This document shows, piece after piece, positions 10,752 to 63,337 of a DNA stretch of 64,000 nucleotides. Source of the DNA: Candidatus Omnitrophota bacterium (GTDB lineage Bacteria > Omnitrophota > Gorgyraeia > Ghiorseimicrobiales > Ghiorseimicrobiaceae); contig JAUXSB010000014.1 of the NCBI GenBank assembly GCA_030681595.1, positions 23,942 through 87,941 of the forward strand, in the 5' to 3' direction. The notes below the pieces were generated by a model. The model was not told where the DNA came from. It worked only from the letters and a program-made list of their open reading frames with translations, and ran no database searches. Numbering within the stretch: position 1 is the stretch's first letter; the number at the start of each line of letters is the position of its first letter. Both the position numbers and the translations under genes were made by a program.

Positions 10752-11588
10752 TTATTCCTTTCGTGATAATTCTTTCGCACGCTTAACTGCTGCCTTAACC
10801 GCATCGGTTAAAGTACCGCCTTTATGCAATGCTTCTAAGCCTGCTTCGGTTGTGCCGCCCTTAGAAACAATGCTCCATTTAAATTTCGAAGGCTCTTCAC
10901 CCAAAAATTGCACCGTAACCAAAGTACCAATAGCTGTTGAACGAGCTAATAGCTTAGCATCTTTCCTGTTAAAACCTATTCCTTCGGCTGCAACAGTAAA
11001 CTCTGGAATAAATACTTCTTGGCTATATTTTTCCCACTGATCTTTAGGCTTATCCTCTAGACGTTCGCACCAAAATCCCGGCCCGCTTCCGGATACCGCG
11101 GTCGCCGCATCCATCATGTCCTCGTTTAAAATTAATGTCTTTCCTAAATTATCAAATAATTTTTTAGCAAATATAACGTCTCCTTTGCTTGCGAATTTCC
11201 CCTTGCACAGACAACTCATGCCTCTACCAATTCTTGCCGGCATATTCGGCATCACCCTCACCACCCGCACGTTACCCAACTGCTTCTCAATATAATTTGT
11301 AGTTATGCCGGCGGCGATAGAAACAAATAATTTGTTTTTCCAACAATCTTTGACCTCGCCTAAAACAAAGTCAAAATCTTGAGGTTTAACAGCCAATATA
11401 ATAACATCAGCATTTTTTGCCAATTCAGAACTATTTTCTGATAACTTTACGCCTTTAAACCTATTTACCTTCTCTTTATCCTTATCAAAAACAAAAAGAT
11501 GATACTTACGCTTAATGCGTTCTGCAATCGCCGAACCCATATTTCCGGCGCCGATTATTCCAATCTTTTTCCGAAAATTTTTAAACAT
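10752..11588 (-). CDS. proC: Pyrroline-5-carboxylate reductase
   Basis: N-terminal Rossmann motif IGIIGAGNMGSA; conserved yggS-proC linkage. Confidence 0.85.
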   Translation of the reverse strand: MFKNFRKKIGIIGAGNMGSAIAERIKRKYHLFVFDKDKEKVNRFKGVKLSENSSELAKNADVIILAVKPQDFDFVLGEVKDCWKNKLFVSIAAGITTNYIEKQLGNVRVVRVMPNMPARIGRGMSCLCKGKFASKGDVIFAKKLFDNLGKTLILNEDMMDAATAVSGSGPGFWCERLEDKPKDQWEKYSQEVFIPEFTVAAEGIGFNRKDAKLLARSTAIGTLVTVQFLGEEPSKFKWSIVSKGGTTEAGLEALHKGGTLTDAVKAAVKRAKELSRKE

Positions 11589-12343
11589 CAGCTGCCAAAT
11601 ATAGCCCTTCCGATTCTAACTATTGTAGCTCCCTCTTCTATCGCCACCTTGTAATCCTGGCTCATACCCATGGACAAAATTCCCAATTCCCAATTCCCAA
11701 TTCCCAATTTAACAACAATCTTTTCCTTGAGCTCTCGTAACATCTTAAAATATGGACGGGCTTCTTCTGGATTGTTTGATAGGGGCGCTATCGTCATCAG
11801 GCCATTTATGCGGATATTTTTAAACTCGGATGCCTTTTTTATAACCTCAATCGTTTCATCGGGTTTTAACCCGAATTTTGTTTTTTCACCCGAGGTATTT
11901 ACTTCTATTAAAATATCCTGAATTTTATTTATTTTTTTAGCCTGCTTATTTATTTCCTCCGCCAAATGCTGGCTGTCCACCGAATGAATCAAATCAAAGA
12001 TCCGCACAGCCTCTTTTACCTTATTGGTCTGCAAATGGCCGATCATGTGCCATTTTAGAGTATTGCGTATTGCCTGCCCGAATGACCGCGCCCGACTGAA
12101 CGTCGTTCGGGCGGGAGTCAGGCGGGGGTGTTGGGTATTGAGTTGATTATACTTGATCAGCGCTTCCCGGACTTTATTTTCGCCGAGGTCAAATATTCCC
12201 GCGTTTATCGCTTCTTTAATCTGCGCTAAATTTGCTTCTTTGACTACCGCAATCAAGGTAATCTCGCCCGGGCTTCTTTTTACTTTCCGGCAAACAAACT
12301 CTATTTCCTCGCGTACGCGCAGGACATTCTCTTTTGGGACCAT
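11588..12343 (-). CDS. yggS: YggS/YlmE-family PLP homeostasis protein carrying two in-frame repeat insertions
   Basis: Conserved LSMGMS and HxIGHLQTNK motifs; extra segments NQLNTQHPRLTPARTTFSRARSFGQAIRNT and LGIGNWELGIL are encoded by repeat DNA. Confidence 0.8.
   Translation of the reverse strand: MVPKENVLRVREEIEFVCRKVKRSPGEITLIAVVKEANLAQIKEAINAGIFDLGENKVREALIKYNQLNTQHPRLTPARTTFSRARSFGQAIRNTLKWHMIGHLQTNKVKEAVRIFDLIHSVDSQHLAEEINKQAKKINKIQDILIEVNTSGEKTKFGLKPDETIEVIKKASEFKNIRINGLMTIAPLSNNPEEARPYFKMLRELKEKIVVKLGIGNWELGILSMGMSQDYKVAIEEGATIVRIGRAIFGS
11678..11710. repeat. Heptamer tandem array (AATTCCC x4 plus partial) inside yggS
   Basis: Direct reading; encodes LGIGNWELGIL immediately before the conserved SMGMS motif. 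Confidence 0.8.
12073..12128. repeat. GC-rich palindromic element (family shared with 30921..31050 and 62960..63120) inserted in frame in yggS
   Basis: cctgcccgaatgaccgcgcccgactgaacgtcgttcgggcgggagtcaggcggg with self-complementary arms; near-identical copies in two intergenic regions. Confidence 0.75.
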
Positions 12344-12566
12344 TTTTAAAAAGATTACGGCTCTAATTCCCTAACATCATAACACAATCTAAAAACTGGT
12401 CAATAGAAAAATGGCGCTTAAAATGAGGCGTGCAGGTAGTTTTTAACCTGCCCATAAGCTGGATTCAGAGGGTGTGAATTGTTTGGTTAGATATATCCGC
12501 CAAAAAGCATGGCGGCTTAATTAGCAGGCGCCCTTCGGGCTATATTTACGAAAACATTGGCTTTCG

Positions 12567-12843
12567 CAAGCTACTGAACCTTCAATAAATAATGGGTACA
12601 TTGGCTGTGATGATTTTGGAGCGAGACAAGGAGCGAGGACGCCGGCGTAGTCTATGCACTACGCCAAGGACGAGCGACGCAGCCGCAGCCCAAAAGCGGC
12701 CAGCCCCGAAGGGGAGGCTTAATCTTTGGCCTGCTGCTTCGTTGCTTCTCCTCTGCGTGCCGCATTGGGCACGCCTTCGTCGTCGCGCCTTGCATCAGGC
12801 TCAAACCTAAGCCTCCAATGTATCCATTATTTATTGAAGGCTC
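12567..12843. mobile_element. MITE-like element: about 29-36 bp terminal inverted repeats flanking a GC-rich non-coding core
   Basis: Left arm gaaccttcaataaataatgggtacattgg, right arm ccaatgtatccattatttattgaaggctc (near-perfect reverse complement); core is much more GC-rich than flanks. Confidence 0.5.
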
Positions 12844-12855
12844 AGTAACTACTCA

Positions 12856-14136
12856 TTAAAAATATTCGCTGTAAATATCTTTTACCCTGCCGGTTACATA
12901 AGTCAGGATATTCTTATCTGGAGATTGAAATATGGCAAGCTTTTTCTCTTTTCTCGCGTTAAAACCGTAAATAACAAGGCCTATGACTGTGCTATAAATT
13001 ACCGAGCGGTTAGAAAAAGAAAAAAGGTCCTTGCCGTAGCCAGGCTGGCTTCTTTCTGATGGAATTTTGGCCTTGGGTATCCCCAATTTAACAGGCACCC
13101 CTAAAATTGACTCTGTCAATTCAAGGAGGCCTTCCATAAGGCTCGTTCCTCCGCTCATAATAACCGGATAATCTATGCCTTTTAGGCATGGCACTACGTC
13201 AATTTTCTCTTTAAGACGGACGAGTAGCTGAGTAACCTCCGGCTCGATAATACCGGAGATCGAACGGCGTTTTATTGGTTGGTATAAATCATCTTTCCTA
13301 ACCATCACCTCTTCATTCTCTCCGATGTCTTTAGAAGTGGCCGCGCCATGGGCATCTTTAATTTCTTCGGCTAATGTAAAAGGAAGCCTCAACACTTCAG
13401 ATATGGCACTGGCGATATTATTCCCCCCATAATTAATTATTTCTGAAAAACGCAAGATATTATCTTTAAAAACCAGCACTTGTGTCAAATCCGCGCCTAT
13501 ATCAATTAAAACACACCCGCTATTTTTTAAATTCTTGTCCAAAACCGCCAGGCTCGCCGCGACCCCAGAAAATACTATGTCCTCCACTTCAAACCCGGCC
13601 TGATTTATTAACCTGACAATATTCTCGATGTGGCTGAGTTTTCCGGCTATCAAATATAAATCAACGGCCAGTTTATGGCCATACAAACCTTTGGGGTTCT
13701 CCATGTAATTATGTTCATCTAAGATATAACGATGGGAGAATTTGTGGATTATTTCCTCATCCAGCTTTAGGTTTAGAGAACAGGCTTGGGAATTAATCAA
13801 ATTTATATCGGCGTTGGTTACAATTTTATTCCCTCTGTCACAAAGCGGCATAACTGCGCCGGCACACCTCAAGATTAAATCTTTCGCATTTATGTTTACA
13901 TAGACGCGCTTTATTTTATGTTTTATCTTATCTTCAAGCGAGCCTACCGTTTGTTTTAAGGTACGGCTCGTTGATGATATGTCCGTAACTAACCCCGCGC
14001 TCATGCCGGAACTTTTTGCTCCGGCATAATCCAACAAGGAAAAATCGCCTCTTTTATCCAATACGCCTGCCGCGATTTTAATCCTGTGCGAACCTAAATC
14101 TACACCGCAAATTATATTACTGCTGTAAGAAAACAT
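12856..14136 (-). CDS. ftsA: Cell division protein FtsA (actin-like ATPase)
   Basis: 426 aa, GVDLGS N-terminal phosphate loop, MSGGTS motif; follows ftsQ. Confidence 0.85.
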   Translation of the reverse strand: MFSYSSNIICGVDLGSHRIKIAAGVLDKRGDFSLLDYAGAKSSGMSAGLVTDISSTSRTLKQTVGSLEDKIKHKIKRVYVNINAKDLILRCAGAVMPLCDRGNKIVTNADINLINSQACSLNLKLDEEIIHKFSHRYILDEHNYMENPKGLYGHKLAVDLYLIAGKLSHIENIVRLINQAGFEVEDIVFSGVAASLAVLDKNLKNSGCVLIDIGADLTQVLVFKDNILRFSEIINYGGNNIASAISEVLRLPFTLAEEIKDAHGAATSKDIGENEEVMVRKDDLYQPIKRRSISGIIEPEVTQLLVRLKEKIDVVPCLKGIDYPVIMSGGTSLMEGLLELTESILGVPVKLGIPKAKIPSERSQPGYGKDLFSFSNRSVIYSTVIGLVIYGFNARKEKKLAIFQSPDKNILTYVTGRVKDIYSEYF

Positions 14137-16832: not shown

Positions 16833-16849
16833 AAATCACTATTTTCCTA

Positions 16850-16979
16850 CGCCGCAAAAGTCTTTGCGGCATCAAACAAAATTCTTCCCGCAACAGCGGG
16901 ATCCCGTTAGCGGGAAAACGCCAGCCACCGCCTAATGGCGGGGTGCCGCCAACGGCGGCATCGGCAGATTTTGTTTGAT
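16850..16979. repeat. Palindromic GC-rich element flanked by 12-bp inverted repeat atcaaacaaaat / attttgtttgat; overlaps murC 3' end
   Basis: Several internal hairpins (gccgcaaa..tttgcggc, cccgcaacagcggg, gccgccaacggcggc); perfect 12-bp terminal inverted repeat at 16871..16882 and 16968..16979. Confidence 0.6.
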
Positions 16980-30224: not shown

Positions 30225-30662
30225 TTACTCTTCAATAAGCTTTTCGGCTATCTGCTCAAAGCTTTCTGCGGCAGTTTTGTAAAATTCCTGCCATAATGTT
30301 TTATCCCAAATCTCAATTCTGTTGGCAACGCCGATAATCACTATATCCCTCTTTATCCCGGCAAAATCTTTCAGGTATTGGGGGAGAAGAATCCTGCCTT
30401 GTTTATCCGCGGCCATTTCAACTGCGCCGGAAAAATACAGCCTATTAAACCTCCTGGCCTCCTGCTTTGTAAAAGGCATAGACTTAAATTTCTGCTCCTG
30501 ATTTTTCCATTCATCTTCGGCAAACATAAATAAACATTTATCCAAACCGCGGGTTACAAAGAATTTCTCAATGAAATTGCTTTTCGCAACTTCGCGGAAT
30601 TTAGAAGGGAGAATAATCCTTCCCTTGCGGTCAATAGTATGTTGATATTCTCCGTAAAACAT
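30225..30662 (-). CDS. mraZ: Transcriptional regulator MraZ
   Basis: Duplicated DxxGR motifs (IDRKGRI, DKQGRI); first gene of the dcw cluster. Confidence 0.9.
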   Translation of the reverse strand: MFYGEYQHTIDRKGRIILPSKFREVAKSNFIEKFFVTRGLDKCLFMFAEDEWKNQEQKFKSMPFTKQEARRFNRLYFSGAVEMAADKQGRILLPQYLKDFAGIKRDIVIIGVANRIEIWDKTLWQEFYKTAAESFEQIAEKLIEE

Positions 30663-30889: not shown

Positions 30890-31250
30890 TCCTATTGCTT
30901 CAAGCGAAAAATGCAAACTTGCCGCGCCCGACCTGCCCGAATGACCGCGCCCGACTAGATGTCGTTCGGGCGAGAGTCAGGCGGGCTGAATGTCGTTCGG
31001 GCGGGCGCTTATTTTTCGCGCGATGCCCCGCCACAAAGCGTTGGCGGGCAGGCCGCGAATCCTTTAAATGAAACCATAAGTTATGGAAGCCTAAAGGCGA
31101 CATAACTTATTTGGTTGAATTTATCCCGATACTTGCAAGAAAATTTAGAATAAATTTTTGCAGTGTTTTAGTATCGGGGGCGGCACAATGGAAAAATTAA
31201 ACCTAACTTTATGTATTACAATGGATAGAATATGGCTGAGATTGTACGTT
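30890..31250. repeat. Composite intergenic repeat: GC-rich palindromic units (30921..31050) plus two-hairpin module (31076..31178)
   Basis: Near-identical to 62940..63250; module related to the leaders at 52686..52934, 54032..54268 and 62214..62370. Confidence 0.7.
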
Positions 31251-35917: not shown

Positions 35918-36805
35918 TTATCCTCTTGGGTGGAACTGTTTATGTATAGCTTTTAACCTGTCTTTATGTATATGCGTATAAATCTGCGTCGTTGAAATAT
36001 CTGAATGCCCGAGCATTTCCTGTACGCTTCTTAAATCCGCGCCGCCTTCCAATAAATGCGTGGCAAAAGAATGCCTTAAAGTATGCGGCTTAATTTGGCG
36101 CTTGATTTTGGCAACCTCGGCATATTTCTTTATAATACTCCAGAGGCTTTGGCGGGAAATTTTTTTTCCTAACCGGCTTAAAAAAATTTCCGGGCTGGTC
36201 TTATTTTTCAGCAATTTCGGCCGGACTCGCTCAAGGTACCTTATCAAGGCTTCTTTGGCCTTGCCGCCTAAAGGAACAATGCGCTCTTTTCTCCCCTTGC
36301 CAAAACAGCGTACAAACCCTACCTCCAAATTTATATCTTCTAATTTAAGGTTAACGAGCTCCGAGGCGCGCATGCCGGTGGCATACAGCATTTCTAAAAT
36401 CGAGCGGTCGCGTACCCCTTCCTTATCTTTCAAATCCGGGGAATTTATCAAGGCTTCAACTTCTGGCAGAGACATCACCTCAGGCAGCCTCTTCCATAAT
36501 TTAGGAGCCTCTAAGACAGACGTCGGATCCGCCTTTAAGATACGTTCCCTGACTAAAAACCGGTATAATGTTTTTATGGCAACTAAATTTCTGGCAATAG
36601 AGGAAGCAGACAACCCGCTTTCTTTTTCCTTAAACATAAAATTCGAAATTTCATCCCTAGTTATTTTAGCTAGAGAGTCTATCTTGTTATTCTCTAAGTA
36701 AGCCGCGTATTTATTCAGGTCCCTTCGGTAAGCAGAAATAGTATTATTGCTTAGGCCGCGCTCGACCGATAAATAATTTAAAAACATCTCTATTAAATCA
36801 TGCAT
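35918..36805 (-). CDS. xerD: Tyrosine recombinase XerD/XerC
   Basis: C-terminal [38 protein letters not shown] catalytic box; 295 aa; lacks the IntI-specific insertion. Confidence 0.8.
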   Translation of the reverse strand: MHDLIEMFLNYLSVERGLSNNTISAYRRDLNKYAAYLENNKIDSLAKITRDEISNFMFKEKESGLSASSIARNLVAIKTLYRFLVRERILKADPTSVLEAPKLWKRLPEVMSLPEVEALINSPDLKDKEGVRDRSILEMLYATGMRASELVNLKLEDINLEVGFVRCFGKGRKERIVPLGGKAKEALIRYLERVRPKLLKNKTSPEIFLSRLGKKISRQSLWSIIKKYAEVAKIKRQIKPHTLRHSFATHLLEGGADLRSVQEMLGHSDISTTQIYTHIHKDRLKAIHKQFHPRG

Positions 36806-37464: not shown

Positions 37465-40747
<3,283 letters not shown>

Positions 40748-41127: not shown

Positions 41128-41205
41128 TGGTCGGGAAGGGCGGACTTGAACCGCCGACCTCTTGCTCCCGAAGCAAGCGCTCTAGCCAAACTAAGCTACT
41201 TCCCG
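41128..41205 (-). tRNA. tRNA-Pro (anticodon CGG), CCA encoded
   Basis: Hand-folded reverse complement CGGGAAG-TA-GCTTAGTTTGGCTAGAGC-GC-TTGCT-TCGGGAG-CAAG..GGCGGTTCAAGTCCGCC-CTTCCCG-ACCA: 7-bp acceptor stem, GTTCAAGTC T-loop, anticodon loop TTCGGGA. Confidence 0.85.
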
Positions 41206-41314
41206 ATTAAATAATCTATTCTTTATGAAATACTACGCCATCCGCCACTAAAGATTCGGCGGATGCCCGCCAACGCATCAGTGGCGGGCAAACTGAGCTA
41301 CTCCCCGATTAAAA
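41187..41314. repeat. 26-bp direct repeat (caaact[a/g]agctact[t/c]cccgattaaa) duplicating the tRNA 5' end, flanking a GC-rich palindromic insert
   Basis: Copies at about 41187..41212 and 41289..41314; insert contains gccatccgcc...ggcggatgc and cccgccaac...tggcggg hairpins. Confidence 0.55.
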
Positions 41315-41357
41315 CAGTATACCAAAAAATTGCCATTCCGCCAAATTAAACTATGGA

Positions 41358-42668
41358 TTAAACTACGGATTCCTTGTTTGAATAAAGGCTGTCCAGCGGG
41401 CTTTTTGGGGCATTACTCATATTCCGCAGGACATGCGTATAAATCATCGTTGTTTCAACATTATTATGGCCCAAAAGCTCCTGCACTTCCCTGATGTTCA
41501 CCCCATTCATCAAAAGATGAGTAGCAAAACTGTGCCGCAAAGTATGAACAGAAACGCGTTTAACAATACCTGCCGCGTCTGCCGCTTTTTTAACTGCCTG
41601 CTGGATAGATTTATCGCTTATATGGTGGCGGCGCGCCTTGCCGCTTCTTGGGTCAACGGAAAGGTTAGGCGAAGGAAAAACATATTGCCAACGCCAATCT
41701 TTCGCGGCATTAGGATATTTGCGCGAAAGCGCGTCCGGTAAATATACCTCGCCATAGCCGGCTTTTAGGTCTTTTTCACGCAACTCTTTAACCCTCTCAA
41801 GATGAAGGCATAAATCATTTTTAATTTTATCAGGAAGCATAGTAGTCCTGTCTTTATCCTGTTTAGCCGCGCGGATAAATATTGTATTTGAGCTAAAATC
41901 AATATCCTGAACCCGCAAGCGCGCAAGCTCCATCAACCGAAGGCCTGAACCATAAAGTAACTGCATAATAAGCCGCCCTTTGCCTTCTATGTGCCTGAAT
42001 AATGCTTCAACTTCCCCTATTGTCAAAACCGTAGGCACTTTTGACCCGCGTTTTGCCCTGACCGCCTTATCCAAATCCTTGAGTTCAACCTCAAGCACCT
42101 CACGGAATAAAAATAAAAGCGCGTTAAACGCCTGATTCTGCGTGGAAGACGAAACCCGCCTTTGGATAGCCAAATAACTTAAGAAATTTCTCACGTCTTC
42201 TGAACCTAGCCTACCATCTTGGGCGCCCTTTTTCTTTACCTCTTCAATATAAGCGTAAAAACGCTTTGCCCAATCAGTGTATGAACGTTCTGTCTTGTAA
42301 GAATAATGCCTAAGCCGTATTGCCTCCCGCATTTTATTTATAATTTCTGAAATCGGCAGGGAAACTTTTTGAGGATTCAATAAATTTTCCTGGCGGGCAT
42401 CCGCGTTTTTTGACAAAAATTGCCCGGAATATAACTTTAGCGCTTCCTCTGCCTGTTTTATCTGCCAATCAGCAAACTCGCCCTGCGCCGCGAGACATAT
42501 CAAAAATTTCCTGATAAGCAAATCCCGGCTCTCTTCTCCGCTATTATTCGCAAAACCAAGGAATTTGCTTACCCAGCGCGCATAATATGAAACGCTCTTT
42601 TCAGGCACAAGTTTACGAGAAGTCAAAAACTCCTGAAATTCTGGCAAAACGTCACTAAGCATCTGCAA
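41358..42668 (-). CDS. intI: Integron integrase (IntI-type tyrosine recombinase); true start possibly near 42362
   Basis: C-terminal [12 protein letters not shown]...[16 protein letters not shown] catalytic box preceded by [40 protein letters not shown], which parallels the IntI-specific extra segment of IntI1 that XerC/D lack; divergent from downstream cassettes. Confidence 0.8.
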
Positions 42669-42899: not shown

Positions 42900-43505
42900 A
42901 TGTATAAAAAATTATTAATCATTTCTATTGGTATCTGTGCAATAGTTAGTAGTTTGTTTGGTTTAGTAAAATTAATGGAAAAAACCAGTGAAAGTTATTA
43001 TCTTAAAATTCCTTATTCATCATATTGTGCAGAATTTCAATCTGGCGGAATTAATTGTGATATGATAGGCGGCAATCTTATATTCGAAAGCGATTCGGAA
43101 AGACCCCTCATTTATTTTAAAAGAGAATTAACAAATAACTCTTTTGAAATTGATCTAAAAAATAAAATAATTCAGCAGATGCAGCATGCTTTTAATAACG
43201 ATTCGGCTCCAGCTTACTCCCCTTGCAACCCCGATCGAAAATATTGTGCTGCCTATAAAACAAAAGGTATTCTGAAAAAAGGAGGCGGAATCGGATTTTG
43301 GGTATCGCCTGATAAATTGTTTGGGTTAGAAATTTTCGAAATAAAAAGTATGCAAACAAAAAAGACATTCTTTCGAAAAATGAATCTGAAGTTCGGTGGT
43401 GCTTCCCCCACACTAAAATATGATACCTTCTGGAGTGAGGATGGTAAATATGTAGTTATCTTTGATAATTCAAATAATCTAATAATTCAAAGAATAAAAG
43501 AATAA
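42900..43505 (+). CDS. Integron cassette ORF: secreted or membrane-anchored protein of unknown function with four cysteines
   Basis: N-terminal hydrophobic signal or anchor (LLIISIGICAIVSSLFGLV); no recognisable family. Confidence 0.5.
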   Translation: MYKKLLIISIGICAIVSSLFGLVKLMEKTSESYYLKIPYSSYCAEFQSGGINCDMIGGNLIFESDSERPLIYFKRELTNNSFEIDLKNKIIQQMQHAFNNDSAPAYSPCNPDRKYCAAYKTKGILKKGGGIGFWVSPDKLFGLEIFEIKSMQTKKTFFRKMNLKFGGASPTLKYDTFWSEDGKYVVIFDNSNNLIIQRIKE

Positions 43506-43580
43506 ATGTTTCTTAATTTTAGAGAGTAGGAACAAACACCTATTATTCAAAGTCAAGATTTAAGATAAAATAATAAAGTC

Positions 43581-43655
43581 GTCTAACAACGCACTGCACC
43601 TGACCTTTCCCGCCGCTAAAGCGGCGCTCAAGGCAGGTGAGTTTGAATGTTATAT
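43581..43655 (+). other. attC-like recombination site 1
   Basis: Starts GTCTAAC (fits RYYYAAC), internal palindromes (cacctgacc...ggcaggtg; cgccgct aaa gcggcg), ends GTTATAT. Confidence 0.4.
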
Positions 43656-44159
43656 AACAAAATGGATAATTTAGACTATGATGCACAGCAGAGGAGAGAA
43701 GTATTTGCCATGTATGGTTTAGCCATGTATCATGCCCAATGTTTTGAAAAAAGCTTGGTTATATTGGTATCCGTTGCATTCAACAAAGAATATTTCAAGA
43801 GTAATTACGAAAAAAGAGAGGAACTTTTTTCTGATACTTTCAAAAAAACAGCCGGACAACTAGTAGAAAAACTTAAAGTGATGGTAAAAGTCCCGAATAC
43901 CCTGGAAAATGACTTATCCAAAGCGGTAAAAAAAAGAAATTGGTTGGCACATGATTATTTTTGGGGAAATTCTTATGATATTTTGACAACAGCCGGAAGA
44001 GAGAGAAAACTAAATGAACTGCATGAAATTTCAGAATATTTTTCAAAGATGGATGAAAGAATGACAAAAATATATCAACGTGTATTCGATAAAATTGGAT
44101 TGACTGAAGATAAAGTTATGGCATATTTAGAGAAAATGGTAGATAAACACAAAATATAA
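43647..44159 (+). CDS. Integron cassette ORF: possible HEPN-motif protein (R-x4-H); true start may be the second ATG at 43662
   Basis: RNWLAH fits the HEPN Rx4-6H motif; otherwise unrecognised; the first five codons overlap the attC right end. Confidence 0.45.
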   Translation: MLYNKMDNLDYDAQQRREVFAMYGLAMYHAQCFEKSLVILVSVAFNKEYFKSNYEKREELFSDTFKKTAGQLVEKLKVMVKVPNTLENDLSKAVKKRNWLAHDYFWGNSYDILTTAGRERKLNELHEISEYFSKMDERMTKIYQRVFDKIGLTEDKVMAYLEKMVDKHKI

Positions 44160-45157: not shown

Positions 45158-45997
45158 ATGAAATTCATTCTTGAGGTTCTTAATATATTCTGGTCCATTT
45201 GCTTAGCGATTATTGCAATAGTTGTATCGTTTCTTATCCCTAAGTCTAAAAAAAGAAAAGAAGTAGGAGTAGGACTCTCAATTTTTTCTTTTACGATTAA
45301 TTTTAGAAAAGATACCTATATAAGGGGGCTTCTGGTTCTTCTAGGAATTTCCTTTCTAGGATTTACATTTGTACGTGATTACTCTTCTTTTTTTCCAAAA
45401 CGGGTGTCATTTGAGATTTATTATGACTCAAATGGGTTGAAACAGGCCATAGAAAGTATAAGGCCGTTATTGGAAGATGGCATGAAGATTTCTCCAGATT
45501 GGGAAAACAAAAGGAGGGCATATTTCCAAGAACTTGATAAAATTATTAAGTCAAAAATACCGCAGTATGAACTATTCTTTTCATATGATCATGTTGAAGA
45601 TTATTTAGTGAGCAAAGGTAAAGCAGAACATGTTGTTGAGTTGTTTAGATTTTGGCAGCAATATAAGATCACCAAGGTCAATGGCTTGGTTCAACATCGG
45701 CTTCACCCGCCTGATATGAATCCGATTGAACTCGAAACCAGGTATAATCTTTTAGATAGACCGAAAAACTTAGTTTTACCCACTATAAGAGATTTCTTCA
45801 GGGGCAGAAAACTTGTTGCACCAACAATGGCACAATCTCTCATAATTCACACAGATAAGGTTTATGAGGCCGAAATTGTAGGACTTACGGAGGTCAGGTT
45901 TTTTCCGTATAATACTTTGGAAAAGACGATATTTTGCTTTAAATCGGAAGCGGGATTAGTTCCTTTTTCGTATACATTTTATAAAGAAGAAGAATAA
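45158..45997 (+). CDS. Integron cassette ORF: 2-TM membrane protein of unknown function (same cassette as the hydrolase)
   Basis: Two N-terminal hydrophobic helices; only 11 bp after the hydrolase stop with no intervening attC. Confidence 0.5.
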   Translation: MKFILEVLNIFWSICLAIIAIVVSFLIPKSKKRKEVGVGLSIFSFTINFRKDTYIRGLLVLLGISFLGFTFVRDYSSFFPKRVSFEIYYDSNGLKQAIESIRPLLEDGMKISPDWENKRRAYFQELDKIIKSKIPQYELFFSYDHVEDYLVSKGKAEHVVELFRFWQQYKITKVNGLVQHRLHPPDMNPIELETRYNLLDRPKNLVLPTIRDFFRGRKLVAPTMAQSLIIHTDKVYEAEIVGLTEVRFFPYNTLEKTIFCFKSEAGLVPFSYTFYKEEE

Positions 45998-46385: not shown

Positions 46386-49300
46386 CTAAACCAAATACAC
46401 GTCGATTTTCTTGATTAGGCCAGAGCGGATTTTTTCTGCGTAGGGGTGGGTGATAATACCGGACTTTATGGTAATAAGTTCTCCGCTATCATCTTCAAAG
46501 ATATACATTCCGACAGAAACACCTTTAGGGCCGAATGTATTTCGCAGCTTAGGATTATGATAGACAACTAAAGTTTTATTTAAGAACTTAAAAGAGTAAT
46601 TTTTTTTCTTGGTGAATAGTTTTTTGTGCAGTATCGGCTTAAATTCTAAGGTTAACTTCCCTTCTTTATCTAATTTAAAAAGGTTAAAGCCGATGTTCAT
46701 TGCCAGCCAGATGCTGATAAACTCAGCGGTCGAGCCGGAAAGACGCGCAACAAAGCCGTTACCGTGAAGACTATCGTCGCAAAATGCACTGCTGGCCAAA
46801 AATGAAGAATTCTCTAAAATACTCCTACCGTATTTTTTGGCATCCAAAAACGGAATAAAGCAATTAAAGAAATCATTATAAAACTCTTCGTATAAACCGC
46901 ATCTTAATAATTCAAGCAGGAATTTATACTCCATGTGCAGCCATACCGATTCGTTTTCCAGCCAACCCGGAGTGAACACTCTGCATCTGCCGATTTCAAT
47001 GGGCGCTTCTTTAAGCGGCGCGCAAACCTTATACATTTTAAGCTTCCTGTCGTAGAGCGAAGACGAACGTATTGCCTTGTATAAACTGGCGGCCTTAGCA
47101 GTGTCTTTTTCTAACCTTAAAGCGTGCACCTGCGCTTCTAAGAAAAACGGCAAAGGCTCCTGCTTAAACTTACGCACTCTTACAGAGCCGGAGTATAACT
47201 CATAATCAACTACTTCGTTTATAAAATAAGCCCGGTAAATGCCTGTCTTTTTATCAACGGCGCGGGATAGCCCAAAAGATATCTTGCGCTCTGCCGCATT
47301 AAGAATAGAAAATAATTCCGCCAGCTTAATCCCGCTTTCTTTCCCGCTAAACCCGAATCTGCTGTTTGCCCTGTAGCCTTCCTTTAAGGCATACGCCTTA
47401 TCCCAAAAGATAAAATCCCGCTCTTTACTGCCAGACGCGAAATATTCCTCAAGCAGTTTGCCTAAATTTTTCAGGAAATTATTTATTTCCAAAGGTAAAA
47501 TCATATCCTCATATTGAAAAGCGCGCGAATTTTTTAGCGCATCTTTAATAAAAATAATAAGGCGCTTCAGCTCAAAAGTTTCATTAGTAGATGAACCGAA
47601 AAGCGCGGGCAGGCCGTTTAAAGAATCAAACCAATTTGGTTTATTTGCCTCCATTTCAACGCCTATCCCTTGCGCGTCCAGCGAGGCAAGCTTATTTACA
47701 AAAAGACAGAGCAGCTTTGTCAGCAAGCTTACATAAATGATATCTCCCTTGCCGAAATCCGCCCTTACCCTATGCGCATCATGCGCTCTTGAACGGATTA
47801 ACTCCTCCTTCTCGGGGTCTTTTTTAAGCGAATGATGCTGGGATACCTTATTGGCGCCAGTTAAAACATACTTTACATCACGCGGCTGGACTATTTCAGC
47901 ATTATCAAAAAAGCTAAATATTTTTTTATCAACAAATATCTCTTTTAGTTTTTCAGGATATAAGGCGAGGTAGCTTTCTATTAAGTCTAAGTTATACGCC
48001 CAATGGTCGCTCCAGAACCCTTCAGAATGTTCCGCATCCTCTATTCTCGCGGATAAACATAGCGCCTCCTTAAGAAACTCCGGCATATCAACATCCAGCC
48101 CGATGTTGTTTTCTTCGATAAGCATAGCAAGCGAGCCCGGAGTAAATGGTTTGTTAAAAAATTGGCCCAAATTTTCCCTGTCTTTCGTGTCAACAATATG
48201 GTTTAAAAGTTCAGGTCTATTCTTTTCTTCCAAGGAAAAACTTAACCCCTTAATTACTAATGGGTTAAAACCATCGGTTTGAATGAGATTTAAGAAATCC
48301 ACCAGATTCGACTCCGCCACATCCGAATTAAACCAGTTATCCGAACGGCGGTTCTGATTCATATCACGGTAATTACCGTTACCTTGAGAAAAATACGTCG
48401 GGCTAAGCAAAAAATTATTGTAATCGCGCTCTAAATCTCCGTGCTTACGAGAATAGAGATAAAATACGGATTTTTTACCTGCACGCGAAAACGAGACGGG
48501 ATATCCGCCCCTTAAAACATTATCTAAAAATGTCTGTTTTGCGTATAAGTTAAACTCACCAAAAGCGCTTTCCGTGTGAATATTATCCTCAATTTCTCGG
48601 ATTAAGTTTGCGTTTTCCTGCTGCTTTTCCTGAATAAAACTATTGTTTAGAATCCTCTCGATCTGAGGAATTAACTTTTCCTTACCGGAAGCATATCCAA
48701 CGATAGAAAAAATTGACTTAGGCTCATCCGGCTTAATAGATGAGCTGAAATAAGAAAAAGCGCACGGGGTCCTGCTTTCTTTAATCTGTTTTGATAAGGC
48801 GGGGTTAAATTTTTCCTTGTTGATGAAATTACGGGGATAAGAAAAATCGCCTTGGCCGAACAGGCATACCGGGTCAACTATAGCATCAAGCAGCTTATTC
48901 TTATTGCCCTCGCGGCAGAAAGGAAGGTAAAAATTCCCCCCCTCTATATAAAAAGTCTCCGGCCTGTCTGCAGGGTCAATATAAAGGTTGTAAAAAGGAA
49001 TCTTATTATTCAAGAAATCAACGCGCATCCATGCTTCAATAGTGCGCGACATGTCTTTTAAGAAAAAGTTAGCTGTGCCATAAGGCGTAATTTTAGGCAG
49101 CCCGTCAACCGCTTCTATTTCAAGGATTTTTTTTCCGGTATTTGTAATTTTTAATTCTCTGATTATCGCGGCTATGGGTTCGCCGGAAAGCGTAAAATAA
49201 CGCACATCAATTTTCAGGCCAAGAAGGGGATTTATTTCCTCTAAAGCAAGCTCGTAAGATTTAATCCTCATTAGGCGGCGTAAGTCAAAAGAAAGATTAT

Positions 49301-49613
49301 CCAGGCTGTCCTGAAAAGGCTCATAATAGGCAACCCTTGAGCCGTTTTTAACTTTCAGAAATGTCCTGAAGCCTTCAGATGCGGCAGACTGCCATGCCTG
49401 ATTCGCGGGAAGGAATTCCAGAATAGAATGATTTTTATCCTTGGTGCCGAAGCTGATTACGAGTTGCCCGCGGTTGACATAAAAAACCCACATCGGTATC
49501 CCGAAGAAACCGGCAATACCCGGGAAAAAGCTGGCAAACGGCTTCGCGGAATTATAATTTTCAATTACAAACTCACCGGTTTTATTATCAAGGTAATATT
49601 TTGGTTTTAACAT
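46386..49613 (-). CDS. Large (1075 aa) protein of unknown function, possibly carbohydrate-active
   Basis: Long uninterrupted ORF; Trp/Asp-rich segments (FWSDHWAYNLD, GNGNYRDMNQNRR) and an adjacent sugar kinase give only contextual hints. Confidence 0.55.
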   Translation of the reverse strand: MLKPKYYLDNKTGEFVIENYNSAKPFASFFPGIAGFFGIPMWVFYVNRGQLVISFGTKDKNHSILEFLPANQAWQSAASEGFRTFLKVKNGSRVAYYEPFQDSLDNLSFDLRRLMRIKSYELALEEINPLLGLKIDVRYFTLSGEPIAAIIRELKITNTGKKILEIEAVDGLPKITPYGTANFFLKDMSRTIEAWMRVDFLNNKIPFYNLYIDPADRPETFYIEGGNFYLPFCREGNKNKLLDAIVDPVCLFGQGDFSYPRNFINKEKFNPALSKQIKESRTPCAFSYFSSSIKPDEPKSIFSIVGYASGKEKLIPQIERILNNSFIQEKQQENANLIREIEDNIHTESAFGEFNLYAKQTFLDNVLRGGYPVSFSRAGKKSVFYLYSRKHGDLERDYNNFLLSPTYFSQGNGNYRDMNQNRRSDNWFNSDVAESNLVDFLNLIQTDGFNPLVIKGLSFSLEEKNRPELLNHIVDTKDRENLGQFFNKPFTPGSLAMLIEENNIGLDVDMPEFLKEALCLSARIEDAEHSEGFWSDHWAYNLDLIESYLALYPEKLKEIFVDKKIFSFFDNAEIVQPRDVKYVLTGANKVSQHHSLKKDPEKEELIRSRAHDAHRVRADFGKGDIIYVSLLTKLLCLFVNKLASLDAQGIGVEMEANKPNWFDSLNGLPALFGSSTNETFELKRLIIFIKDALKNSRAFQYEDMILPLEINNFLKNLGKLLEEYFASGSKERDFIFWDKAYALKEGYRANSRFGFSGKESGIKLAELFSILNAAERKISFGLSRAVDKKTGIYRAYFINEVVDYELYSGSVRVRKFKQEPLPFFLEAQVHALRLEKDTAKAASLYKAIRSSSLYDRKLKMYKVCAPLKEAPIEIGRCRVFTPGWLENESVWLHMEYKFLLELLRCGLYEEFYNDFFNCFIPFLDAKKYGRSILENSSFLASSAFCDDSLHGNGFVARLSGSTAEFISIWLAMNIGFNLFKLDKEGKLTLEFKPILHKKLFTKKKNYSFKFLNKTLVVYHNPKLRNTFGPKGVSVGMYIFEDDSGELITIKSGIITHPYAEKIRSGLIKKIDVYLV

Positions 49614-62924: not shown

Positions 62925-62952
62925 AGTATACAATAAAAAAATATTTTGTCAA
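62925..62952 (-). promoter_or_regulatory. Sigma-70-type promoter candidate for the Rrf2 gene (TTGACA, 16-nt spacer, TATACT)
   Basis: Minus strand reads cgcTTGACAaaatatttttttattgTATACT about 30 nt upstream of the Rrf2 start. Confidence 0.45.
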
Positions 62953-63250
62953 GCGAAAAATGCAAACTTGCCGCGCCCGACCCGCCTGACTTCATTCGGG
63001 CAGGCTGAATGTCGTTCGGGCGGGCGCTTATTTTTCGCGCGATGCCCCGCCACAAAGCCCGCCACTAAAACATCAGCGGGTTCGCCTAAGATTTGTGGCG
63101 AACGTTGGCGGGCAGGCGCAAATACTTTAAATGAAACCATAAGTTATGGAAGCCTAAAGGCGACATAACTTATTTGGTTGAATTTATCCCGATACTTGCA
63201 AGAAAATTTAGAATAAATTTTCGCGGTGTTTTAGTATCGGGGCGCGGCGC
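62940..63250. repeat. Composite intergenic repeat (GC-rich palindromic units plus two-hairpin module), second copy of the 30890..31250 element
   Basis: Long stretches identical to 30900..31190; module stem cccgatact/agtatcggg around palindrome aaaatttagaataaatttt. Confidence 0.7.
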
Positions 63251-63337
63251 AAGCCATTTTTAATATTTTTCAGAAGCGGTTTTTATTATTTGAAACGGTG
63301 GGTAAAGACAGAAAAACAGTTGCGAGTAAGCGCGGTT

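Follow-up and report, generated by a model that had tools for sequence, protein, structure and literature searches.

A strain-variable palindromic element of the MITE type between ftsA and yggS in an Omnitrophota division gene cluster without adjacent ftsZ

INTRODUCTION

The subject of this study is a 272-bp palindromic element with the organization of a MITE (miniature inverted-repeat transposable element), which lies between ftsA and yggS, in the place where ftsZ would be expected, in 64,000 nt of DNA from a Candidatus Omnitrophota bacterium (GCA_030681595.1, contig JAUXSB010000014.1, positions 23,942 to 87,941; hereafter the window). The closest described systems are mobile palindromes of other bacteria. 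ERIC and YPAL sequences, found in Enterobacteriaceae and Yersinia, are imperfect palindromes bounded by terminal inverted repeats and flanked by 5'-TA-3'; they are located in transcribed intergenic regions or at the 3' ends of genes, are co-transcribed with them, and form RNA hairpins that can alter mRNA decay (PMC3184786). The Correia elements (CREE/NEMIS) of Neisseria are MITEs with terminal inverted repeats of ∼26 bp, which vary between strains, are often co-transcribed with their neighbours and are deemed non-autonomous (PMC3184786).

The Omnitrophota element shares with ERIC/YPAL the terminal inverted repeats, the TA duplication and the location of its copies inside operons or just past a stop codon, and with the Correia elements the fact of being bounded by terminal inverted repeats and variable between strains. 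However, it has no sequence similarity to ERIC/YPAL (Rfam, BLAST), it is twice as long (272–285 bp, against ∼127 bp for ERIC), its core is G+C-rich and branched with compensated intra-arm helices, it belongs to another phylum, and any effect on mRNA is suggested by analogy only. Correia elements are 104–157 bp long, carry IHF sites and promoters and are present in hundreds of copies per genome, whereas neither a promoter nor a terminator was detected inside the 272 bp.

TA duplications usually stem from IS630/Tc1-mariner-like enzymes, being characteristic of this superfamily, and some members of the IS5/IS427 group produce them as well. In the REPIN/RAYT palindromes, short REP hairpins constitute the recognition unit, and to our knowledge IS200/IS605-related elements neither duplicate their target nor possess long terminal inverted repeats. 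The element has the TA duplication and the repeat-bounded ends of non-autonomous IS630/Tc1-mariner derivatives, but no cognate transposase was found for it in the window; it differs from the REPIN/RAYT and IS200/IS605 types by its TA duplication and its 31-nt terminal repeats.

The second aspect of the locus is the missing ftsZ. According to Pende et al. (2021), FtsZ is absent in Planctomycetes, Omnitrophica and Chlamydiae, and FtsA too is missing from Planctomycetes and Chlamydiae (PMC8178401). The FtsZ-less lineages Planctomycetota and Chlamydiota, which belong to the same PVC superphylum, likewise retained the peptidoglycan-synthesis genes of the division and cell wall (dcw) cluster (PMC5147048, PMC12283558). 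Whereas these two lost FtsA too, Omnitrophota retain ftsA, ftsQ, ftsL, ftsW and ftsI in a colinear cluster.

RESULTS AND DISCUSSION

A strain-variable insertion at a TA site past the ftsA stop codon

The limits of the element were obtained by comparison with a 2.2-kb metagenome contig, L091, whose FtsA protein is 100% identical to that of the window and whose DNA is 99.7% identical over 2035 nt. This contig is devoid of exactly window positions 12574–12845 and has a single TA at the junction. Past the ftsA stop codon, the empty site reads TAATGAGTAGA-TA-GCTTGCGAAAGCC..., and the filled site of the window reads TAATGAGTAGT-TA-(272 nt)-TA-GCTTGCGAAAGCC.... Since the two BLAST segments overlap by exactly TA, 12574–12845 corresponds to an insertion flanked by a duplicated TA. 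On the yggS side, L091 2034–2200 aligns to window 12573–12407 at 98.8%. L001, a contig from an independent Logan assembly, has the same sequence as the window through ftsA and for 80 nt of the element, at which point it ends. It thus reproduces the junction, which indicates that the filled allele is real and not an assembly error, an explanation that had been left open before. Moreover, in relatives with FtsA 51–73% identical the ftsA-yggS spacers measure 109–235 nt and the element is absent.

In the window, the spacer comprises 512 nt (12344–12855) and none of its open reading frames (ORFs) matches a Pfam family, in agreement with the ∼0.5 kb of non-coding DNA announced by the original prediction. 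The near-perfect inverted repeats that it described there are real; only their limits are slightly shifted, to 31-nt arms (Table 1) instead of 12567..12595 and 12815..12843. These arms are identical at 29 of 31 positions, and a 25-nt pattern drawn from them has two sites in the window, which are the two arms (0 expected, 100 shuffles). The core is as G+C-rich as had been noticed, with 61% G+C against 41% for the window. The ORFs of the element have no Pfam match, and there is no transposase gene within the 272 bp. A blastn search of the element against plasmid and phage collections gave no match. Screening of the whole window with Rfam 15 revealed nothing at gathering thresholds in the spacer or element, and permissive E-values over the spacer yielded chance-level hits only, such as U8 at 30 bits for a cut-off of 41 bits.

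Terminal inverted repeats, a TA duplication established by filled/empty comparison, a small size and the lack of a transposase gene are among the features of a MITE. In its organization the element is a bacterial MITE of the ERIC/YPAL/Correia kind, with no sequence relation to these or to any Rfam family. The existence of relatives devoid of both ftsZ and the element, together with that of an empty-site strain, shows that the element did not replace ftsZ, contrary to one of the possibilities first considered. As judged from these alignments, the insertion is recent and mobile, differs in presence from strain to strain and is not a relic of ftsZ loss. We also considered the element as an ftsZ remnant and rejected this candidate, as neither tblastn with an FtsZ query nor a Pfam search with the element ORFs showed similarity to FtsZ in any frame.

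A family of dispersed copies in public metagenomes

To find further copies, a spurious 72-codon ORF of the element was translated and used to search a protein collection. This search retrieved 28 clusters of 'hypothetical proteins' of 77–115 residues, 17 of them with E ≤ 1e-5. They share the N-terminus M.TLAE.ILERDKERGRRRS and then switch reading frames relative to one another. When threaded on the DNA, each protein spans nearly the whole element, starting at an ATG in one terminal repeat and reaching the CTCAG of the opposite repeat, at the cost of one to a few frameshifts per copy. This frame switching between copies indicates that the proteins are translations of non-coding copies of a single DNA family. 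When two further cluster members are added, and then the window copy and a copy on contig L180, at least 32 distinct copies exist in public metagenomes, in at least three gene contexts. At least 30 database entries (P0232–P0261, 77–115 residues) are thus spurious translations of the element, which creates dozens of such 'hypothetical proteins' in public databases.

The copies occupy very short gaps between operon genes, in either orientation. One of them, on the P0234 contig and read from its translation, lies in the mraY-murD gap of a further Omnitrophota-type dcw cluster, in which ftsA is again directly before yggS. The copy on L180 (9983–10267, 285 nt) fills the gap between an lptC-like gene, whose stop codon falls inside the terminal repeat, and the next gene, whose ATG directly follows the flanking TA. 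The element is the only sequence common to L180 and the window. The L180 and P0234 contig copies are sense to transcription and the window copy is antisense.

Scans of viral contigs gave chance 17-mers or nothing, and our literature search found no paper on MITEs in Omnitrophota. The element is of practical interest as a strain-level marker and because short-read assemblies break at it, with three independent contigs ending inside or beside such repeats. In another Omnitrophota genome (L014, 3050–3205), the gap from ddl to ftsQ holds a different palindromic element of ∼150 nt, whose 21-nt terminal repeats are perfect (TATCAACCTTTGCGCTACCAA) and whose G+C-rich core contains a local hairpin. The ddl stop codon lies inside this element, and its match to the profile hidden Markov model (HMM) of the family is weak (E = 2e-5).

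Absence of ftsZ as a probable trait of the phylum

The original prediction, that ftsZ is missing from its expected slot in an otherwise complete and colinear dcw cluster and from the rest of the window, holds. The genes are, in this order, mraZ, rsmH, ftsL, ftsI, murE, murF, mraY, murD, ftsW, murG, a peptidase-MA gene, murC, murB, ddl, ftsQ and ftsA, after which come the spacer and yggS. In the 64-kb window, the best tblastn hit with Escherichia coli FtsZ has an E-value of 2.2, and none of the remaining large ORFs shows a tubulin/FtsZ domain in family scans.

The nearest FtsA homologues are annotated as Candidatus Omnitrophica or Omnitrophota. We compared the neighbourhoods of FtsA relatives at 34–73% identity and added two collection scans with an FtsA alignment, examining in each locus the 2.5–6 kb downstream of ftsA. 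With one exception, ftsZ is found downstream in none of the loci whose FtsA is at least 29% identical (L002–L019, L092–L140 and the P0234 contig), which amount to more than 50 loci, with named Omnitrophota genomes contributing about a dozen and metagenome contigs about 45. The exception, L136, has ftsA and ftsZ adjacent and is a contig of Candidatus Aureabacteria, a related phylum. As a positive control, tblastn with E. coli FtsZ located ftsZ directly behind ftsA in other phyla, at 60 loci in one scan and ∼25 in the other, including Patescibacteria, Spirochaetota, Bacteroidota and Poribacteria. The Aureabacteria FtsZ used as a query gave no match named Omnitrophota among the best 120, which is weak evidence. 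The ftsA-to-yggS adjacency recurs in the relatives, and those with FtsA 51–73% identical keep the exact order ftsA-yggS-proC-MTAP-ileS; yggS is thus the usual downstream neighbour, as had been supposed.

These observations agree with published data. In the survey of PMC8178401, four Omnitrophica genomes lack FtsZ and three of these have FtsA; in its supplementary table the FtsA-positive, FtsZ-negative genomes are Omnitrophus magneticus, RIFOXYB12_FULL_50_7 and WOR_2 SM23_29. An older claim of FtsZ in Omnitrophica rested solely on 'Omnitrophica bacterium OLB16' (PMC5147048), the only listed genome with FtsZ, and current NCBI taxonomy places OLB16 in Candidatus Hinthialibacterota. The supplements of PMC12283558 contain no Omnitrophota rows, and division genes are not discussed by Seymour et al. 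2023 (PMC10066038). Taken together, the related loci without ftsZ, the survey and the reclassification of OLB16 point to the missing ftsZ as a phylum-wide trait, previously recorded in the literature though little discussed, and not as a local event. The proposal that ftsZ was lost as in Chlamydiae and Planctomycetes is therefore supported for the lineage rather than proven for this genome; on the basis of synteny and literature, and with 64 kb of its DNA examined, ftsZ is probably truly absent from it. Omnitrophota, which keep FtsA and late divisome genes but apparently not FtsZ, may constitute a natural test case for FtsA without its usual partner.

Conserved stems and predicted fold of the element

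The region folds far better than shuffled sequences, with z-scores of –12.4 and –11.4 for its two strands, and both strands of the window copy fold equally well (–146.0 versus –145.3 kcal/mol). The window and L180 copies, ∼88% identical, have on one strand a consensus fold composed of a terminal stem formed by the inverted repeats and two domains that each fold within one arm. Between them, 10 pairs are changed on both sides and yet remain paired, which 0 of 500 shuffles reach. Three belong to the terminal stem, one to hairpin 2 and two to the other arm, and the intra-arm helix (12713–12721/12808–12816) contributes four of its nine pairs, the L180 strands being GGAAGCCCG/CGGGCTTCC. The loop of hairpin 1 varies in length and sequence among the translated copies, which also imply further still-paired variants of the hairpin 2 stem (ATC/GAT, AG/CT).

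On the two real DNA copies, this three-way junction has all cells paired. For a long-hairpin model deduced from nothing but the window, the proportion of paired cells is 91%, and its 57 cross-arm pairs show 0 compensations and eight broken pairs. Over 32 copies, the three-way junction is 97.3% paired and the long hairpin 83.2%, values to be read with the facts that 30 of the 32 copies are conservative reconstructions from translations, with synonymous positions taken from the template and ambiguous ones set to N, and that the two sequences on which the three-way structure was tested are also those from which it was deduced. The simple long hairpin thus fits the family worse, although RNAalifold on the opposite strand still prefers it. 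On sequence grounds, the terminal stem and the local hairpins are the conserved features, the three-way junction being a candidate for the global fold.

Proposed history of the locus and alternative explanations

We consider it very probable that the locus combines two things, a lineage trait of Omnitrophota, which lack ftsZ, and the independent insertion of a 272-bp non-autonomous transposable element. The two are unrelated and coincide here. In this scheme, the dcw cluster of Omnitrophota ends at ftsA without an adjacent ftsZ, and yggS follows, apparently under its own sigma-70-like promoter. The element inserted at a TA located 8 nt past the ftsA stop codon and duplicated it. Being non-coding, it was presumably moved by a transposase acting in trans, and the TA duplication points to an IS630/Tc1-mariner-like enzyme or, less likely, to one of the IS5/IS427 group. 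If the dcw transcript crosses the element, it would contain a ∼270-nt RNA stem or three-way junction of about –146 kcal/mol, which might stabilize the 3' end of the mRNA or offer a processing site, by analogy with ERIC and Correia sequences (PMC3184786).

Several points weigh against this interpretation. No transposase is encoded in the window, whose only recombinases are XerC/D-like (35918–36805) and a tRNA-associated integrase (41358–42668), and a pattern and profile HMM search found a single copy of the element in the 64 kb. The exact 23-nt terminal-repeat pattern was not found in species-representative genomes or JGI metagenome contigs, this pattern being too specific for diverged copies. 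The L180 copy has a TA on one flank, and on its other flank a CG lies between the element and a TA, so that the TA duplication rests on a single clean filled/empty pair. In principle, the empty allele may have arisen by precise deletion from one TA to the other instead of being ancestral, and this too would imply a TA-duplicating insertion. A classical cut-and-paste transposon, which moves as a double strand, has no need of the intra-arm compensations; these hint at a single-stranded stage, RNA or DNA. Finally, the dcw genes have been called 'highly conserved' in Omnitrophota in a 2025 paper (PMC12283558), and the portion of the genome examined is 64 kb.

The last two points favour a relocation, in which a normal FtsZ is encoded elsewhere in the genome and works with FtsA as usual. 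An intact FtsA with typical features (SHS2 1C domain, ...IYSEYF tail) speaks in the same direction, as does the loss of FtsA in the other PVC lineages that lost FtsZ (PMC12283558). Set against this are the four surveyed Omnitrophica genomes without FtsZ, of which three keep FtsA, the removal of OLB16 from the phylum, the ftsA-ftsZ adjacency retained in the related Aureabacteria and, more weakly, the failure of the Aureabacteria query to reach a sequence named Omnitrophota among its best 120 matches, and we regard a relocation as rather unlikely. The idea that the element displaced ftsZ or is what remains of it, or that the junction is an assembly artefact, has in its favour the position alone, the slot where ftsZ is expected. 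It is refuted by the absence of FtsZ similarity in every frame of the element, by relatives that lack both ftsZ at this slot and the element, by the empty-site allele and by the independent assembly that reproduces the junction.

The compensations within arms suggest selection on a single-stranded form and keep two minority explanations alive. The element may primarily be a structured RNA with a function, acting in cis in operons or encoded as a small RNA, with a selected fold that happens to be spread by transposition, and not a purely selfish MITE. This would account for the compensated pairs of the intra-arm helix and hairpin 2, for the better pairing of the three-way junction over the 32 copies (∼97% versus ∼83%) while the cross-arm helix has no compensation and 8 of 57 pairs broken, for a core at 61% G+C in a 41% genome, and for copies tolerated inside essential operons, such as between mraY and murD. 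Nevertheless, both strands fold equally well, copies are found in both orientations (the window copy runs against transcription, those of L180 and the P0234 contig run with it), no Rfam family matches and some strains do without the element; moreover, the structure comes from its own two test sequences and 30 of the 32 copies from translations. We therefore hold a primary RNA function to be unlikely. Less likely still is the more specific idea of a mobile, fold-constrained RNA module, with a terminal stem and two branched arms, that spreads into the tiny gaps of essential Omnitrophota operons (mraY/murD, ftsA/yggS, lptC/next gene) and acts there as an operon-internal mRNA processing or stabilizing signal, in a phylum whose complete FtsA/FtsQLWI divisome would also operate without FtsZ. 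Should the fold be functional in RNA, transposition would have spread operon-internal regulation in an uncultivated phylum. The other explanation is mobilization as single-stranded DNA by a tyrosine transposase of the IS200/IS605 or RAYT type, which would make the element REPIN-like rather than a cut-and-paste MITE with terminal repeats and TA duplication. Conserved, compensated local hairpins in each arm are what such enzymes recognize, and the left junction of the filled allele, TTAC|TGAG, resembles an IS608-type target. However, the clean TA duplication and 31-nt terminal inverted repeats, an empty site without TTAC and the absence of such a transposase from the window make this very unlikely. 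The combination of an ftsZ-less lineage and an independent MITE-like insertion thus remains our preferred explanation.

Organization of the ftsA-yggS region and of the dcw cluster

The coordinates of the features are given in Table 1. The genes of the region are all on the minus strand, and yggS is followed at its 3' side by proC, a gene for an MTAP-like phosphorylase and ileS. NCBIfam equivalog matches support mraZ, rsmH, murE, murF, mraY, murD, ftsW, murG, murC and ftsA; ddl was assigned by a Pfam match, ftsQ by a weak Pfam match and murB through the identical contig L001. FtsA is intact, with its SHS2 1C domain and the conserved C-terminal ...IYSEYF tail. In all Omnitrophota-type dcw clusters examined, murG and murC are separated by a peptidase-MA-like gene (PF13485; 18467–19264 in the window), which constitutes a lineage signature. 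At 16833–16975, the spacer that separates murC from murB, together with the part of murC for its C-terminal tail, forms a run of small G+C-rich stem-loops (GCCGCCGTTGGCGGC, CCGCCATTAGGCGG, CCCGCTAACGGG and others), with up to 62% G+C.

Table 1. Positions of the genes, insertion limits and predicted structural features of the ftsA-yggS region in the window
Feature	Position	Strand	Sequence and remarks
mraZ, first dcw gene	30225–30662	minus	
ftsA, last dcw gene	12856–14136	minus	TIGR01174 239 bits (cut-off 176); Pfam FtsA and SHS2_FTSA
TA target-site duplication, ftsA side	12846–12847		Filled versus empty allele (L091); BLAST segments overlap by exactly TA
MITE-like palindromic element, 272 bp	12574–12845		Absent from L091, present in L001; family profile HMM E = 9e-74
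Terminal inverted repeat, ftsA-proximal arm	12815–12845		Reverse complement CTGAGCCTTCAATAAATAATGGATACATTGG; 29/31 match to other arm; 3 compensated pairs versus L180
Intra-arm helix, 3' strand	12808–12816		TAAGCCTCC
Local hairpin 2	12755–12774		GCGTGCC-loop-GGCACGC; G-C to A-T in L180
Intra-arm helix, 5' strand	12713–12721		GGAGGCTTA; pairs with 12808–12816
Local hairpin 1	12644–12665		GGCGTAGT-loop-ACTACGCC; stem invariant between window and L180, loop differs
Terminal inverted repeat, yggS-proximal arm	12574–12604		CTGAACCTTCAATAAATAATGGGTACATTGG
TA target-site duplication, yggS side	12572–12573		Filled versus empty allele
Original ftsA-yggS spacer, four small stem-loops	12404–12571	minus	In filled and empty alleles
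yggS promoter-like site	12376–12403	minus	TTGACC-16 nt-TATGAT, TG upstream of –10 hexamer; 10/12 consensus matches
yggS (PLP-binding YggS family)	11588–12343	minus	TIGR00044 172 bits (cut-off 106)

No terminator-like site was called in the original spacer (12404–12571). The arrangement TTGACC...TAT(A/G/T)AT is also present upstream of yggS in L003, L005, L009 and L012, and with this conserved promoter-like site yggS appears to be transcribed on its own.

The ftsA-yggS spacer is a hotspot of small insertions in this clade. In L004 and L005, two loci of the CG11 Omnitrophica lineage with the same FtsA protein, its length differs by 126 nt (L004 7340–7470, L005 7340–7350). The additional sequence is bordered by a second, 29-nt copy of the yggS promoter and terminates in a hairpin with a UUCG cap, which is followed by an inverted copy of the promoter-spacer sequence. 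A similar insert is found in L002 (7880–8010), accompanied by two small ORFs, one with a weak DUF4124 match and the other a glutaredoxin.

Other repeats and features of the window

A second repeat family of ∼300 nt, which we call Element R, is represented on the minus strand at 30895–31195 and 62940–63260, one copy being upstream of mraZ and the other upstream of an Rrf2 regulator gene. It is also present in L010 (3538–3607), L011 (2450–2519) and L012 (5336–5397); in L010 and L011 its module starts right past the ftsA stop codon and the contigs end there. Element R consists of an A+T-rich 5' module with two hairpins and a G+C-rich 3' part that ends in ...TTTTTCGCTTGA(C) and supplies a –35-like hexamer. 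It has no Rfam match and a fold z-score of –7. Within yggS, an in-frame insertion of 54 nt (12073–12126), encoding the 18 residues PRLTPARTTFSRARSFGQ, is 92.6% identical to a G+C-rich module of Element R copy A (30932–30985). It is absent in five relatives and brings to mind the palindromic elements of Rickettsia, which are inserted within coding sequence.

A tRNA-Pro(CGG) gene at 41128–41205 is preceded by a partial duplicate of the 5' end of the tRNA (∼41290–41310) and by G+C-rich hairpins. A tyrosine integrase gene is located at 41358–42668, and plus-strand ORFs without family match come after it. The region 41128–42668 is probably an integrated island. ORFs without Pfam match include 46386–49613, 45158–45997, 42900–44159 and 37465–37977, one of them of 1075 residues. 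Finally, a c-di-GMP-I riboswitch was detected on the minus strand at 2050–2188 (67 bits, cut-off 35), upstream of a gene (1336–1794) for a small protein with an N-terminal methylation motif of the pilin-like type.

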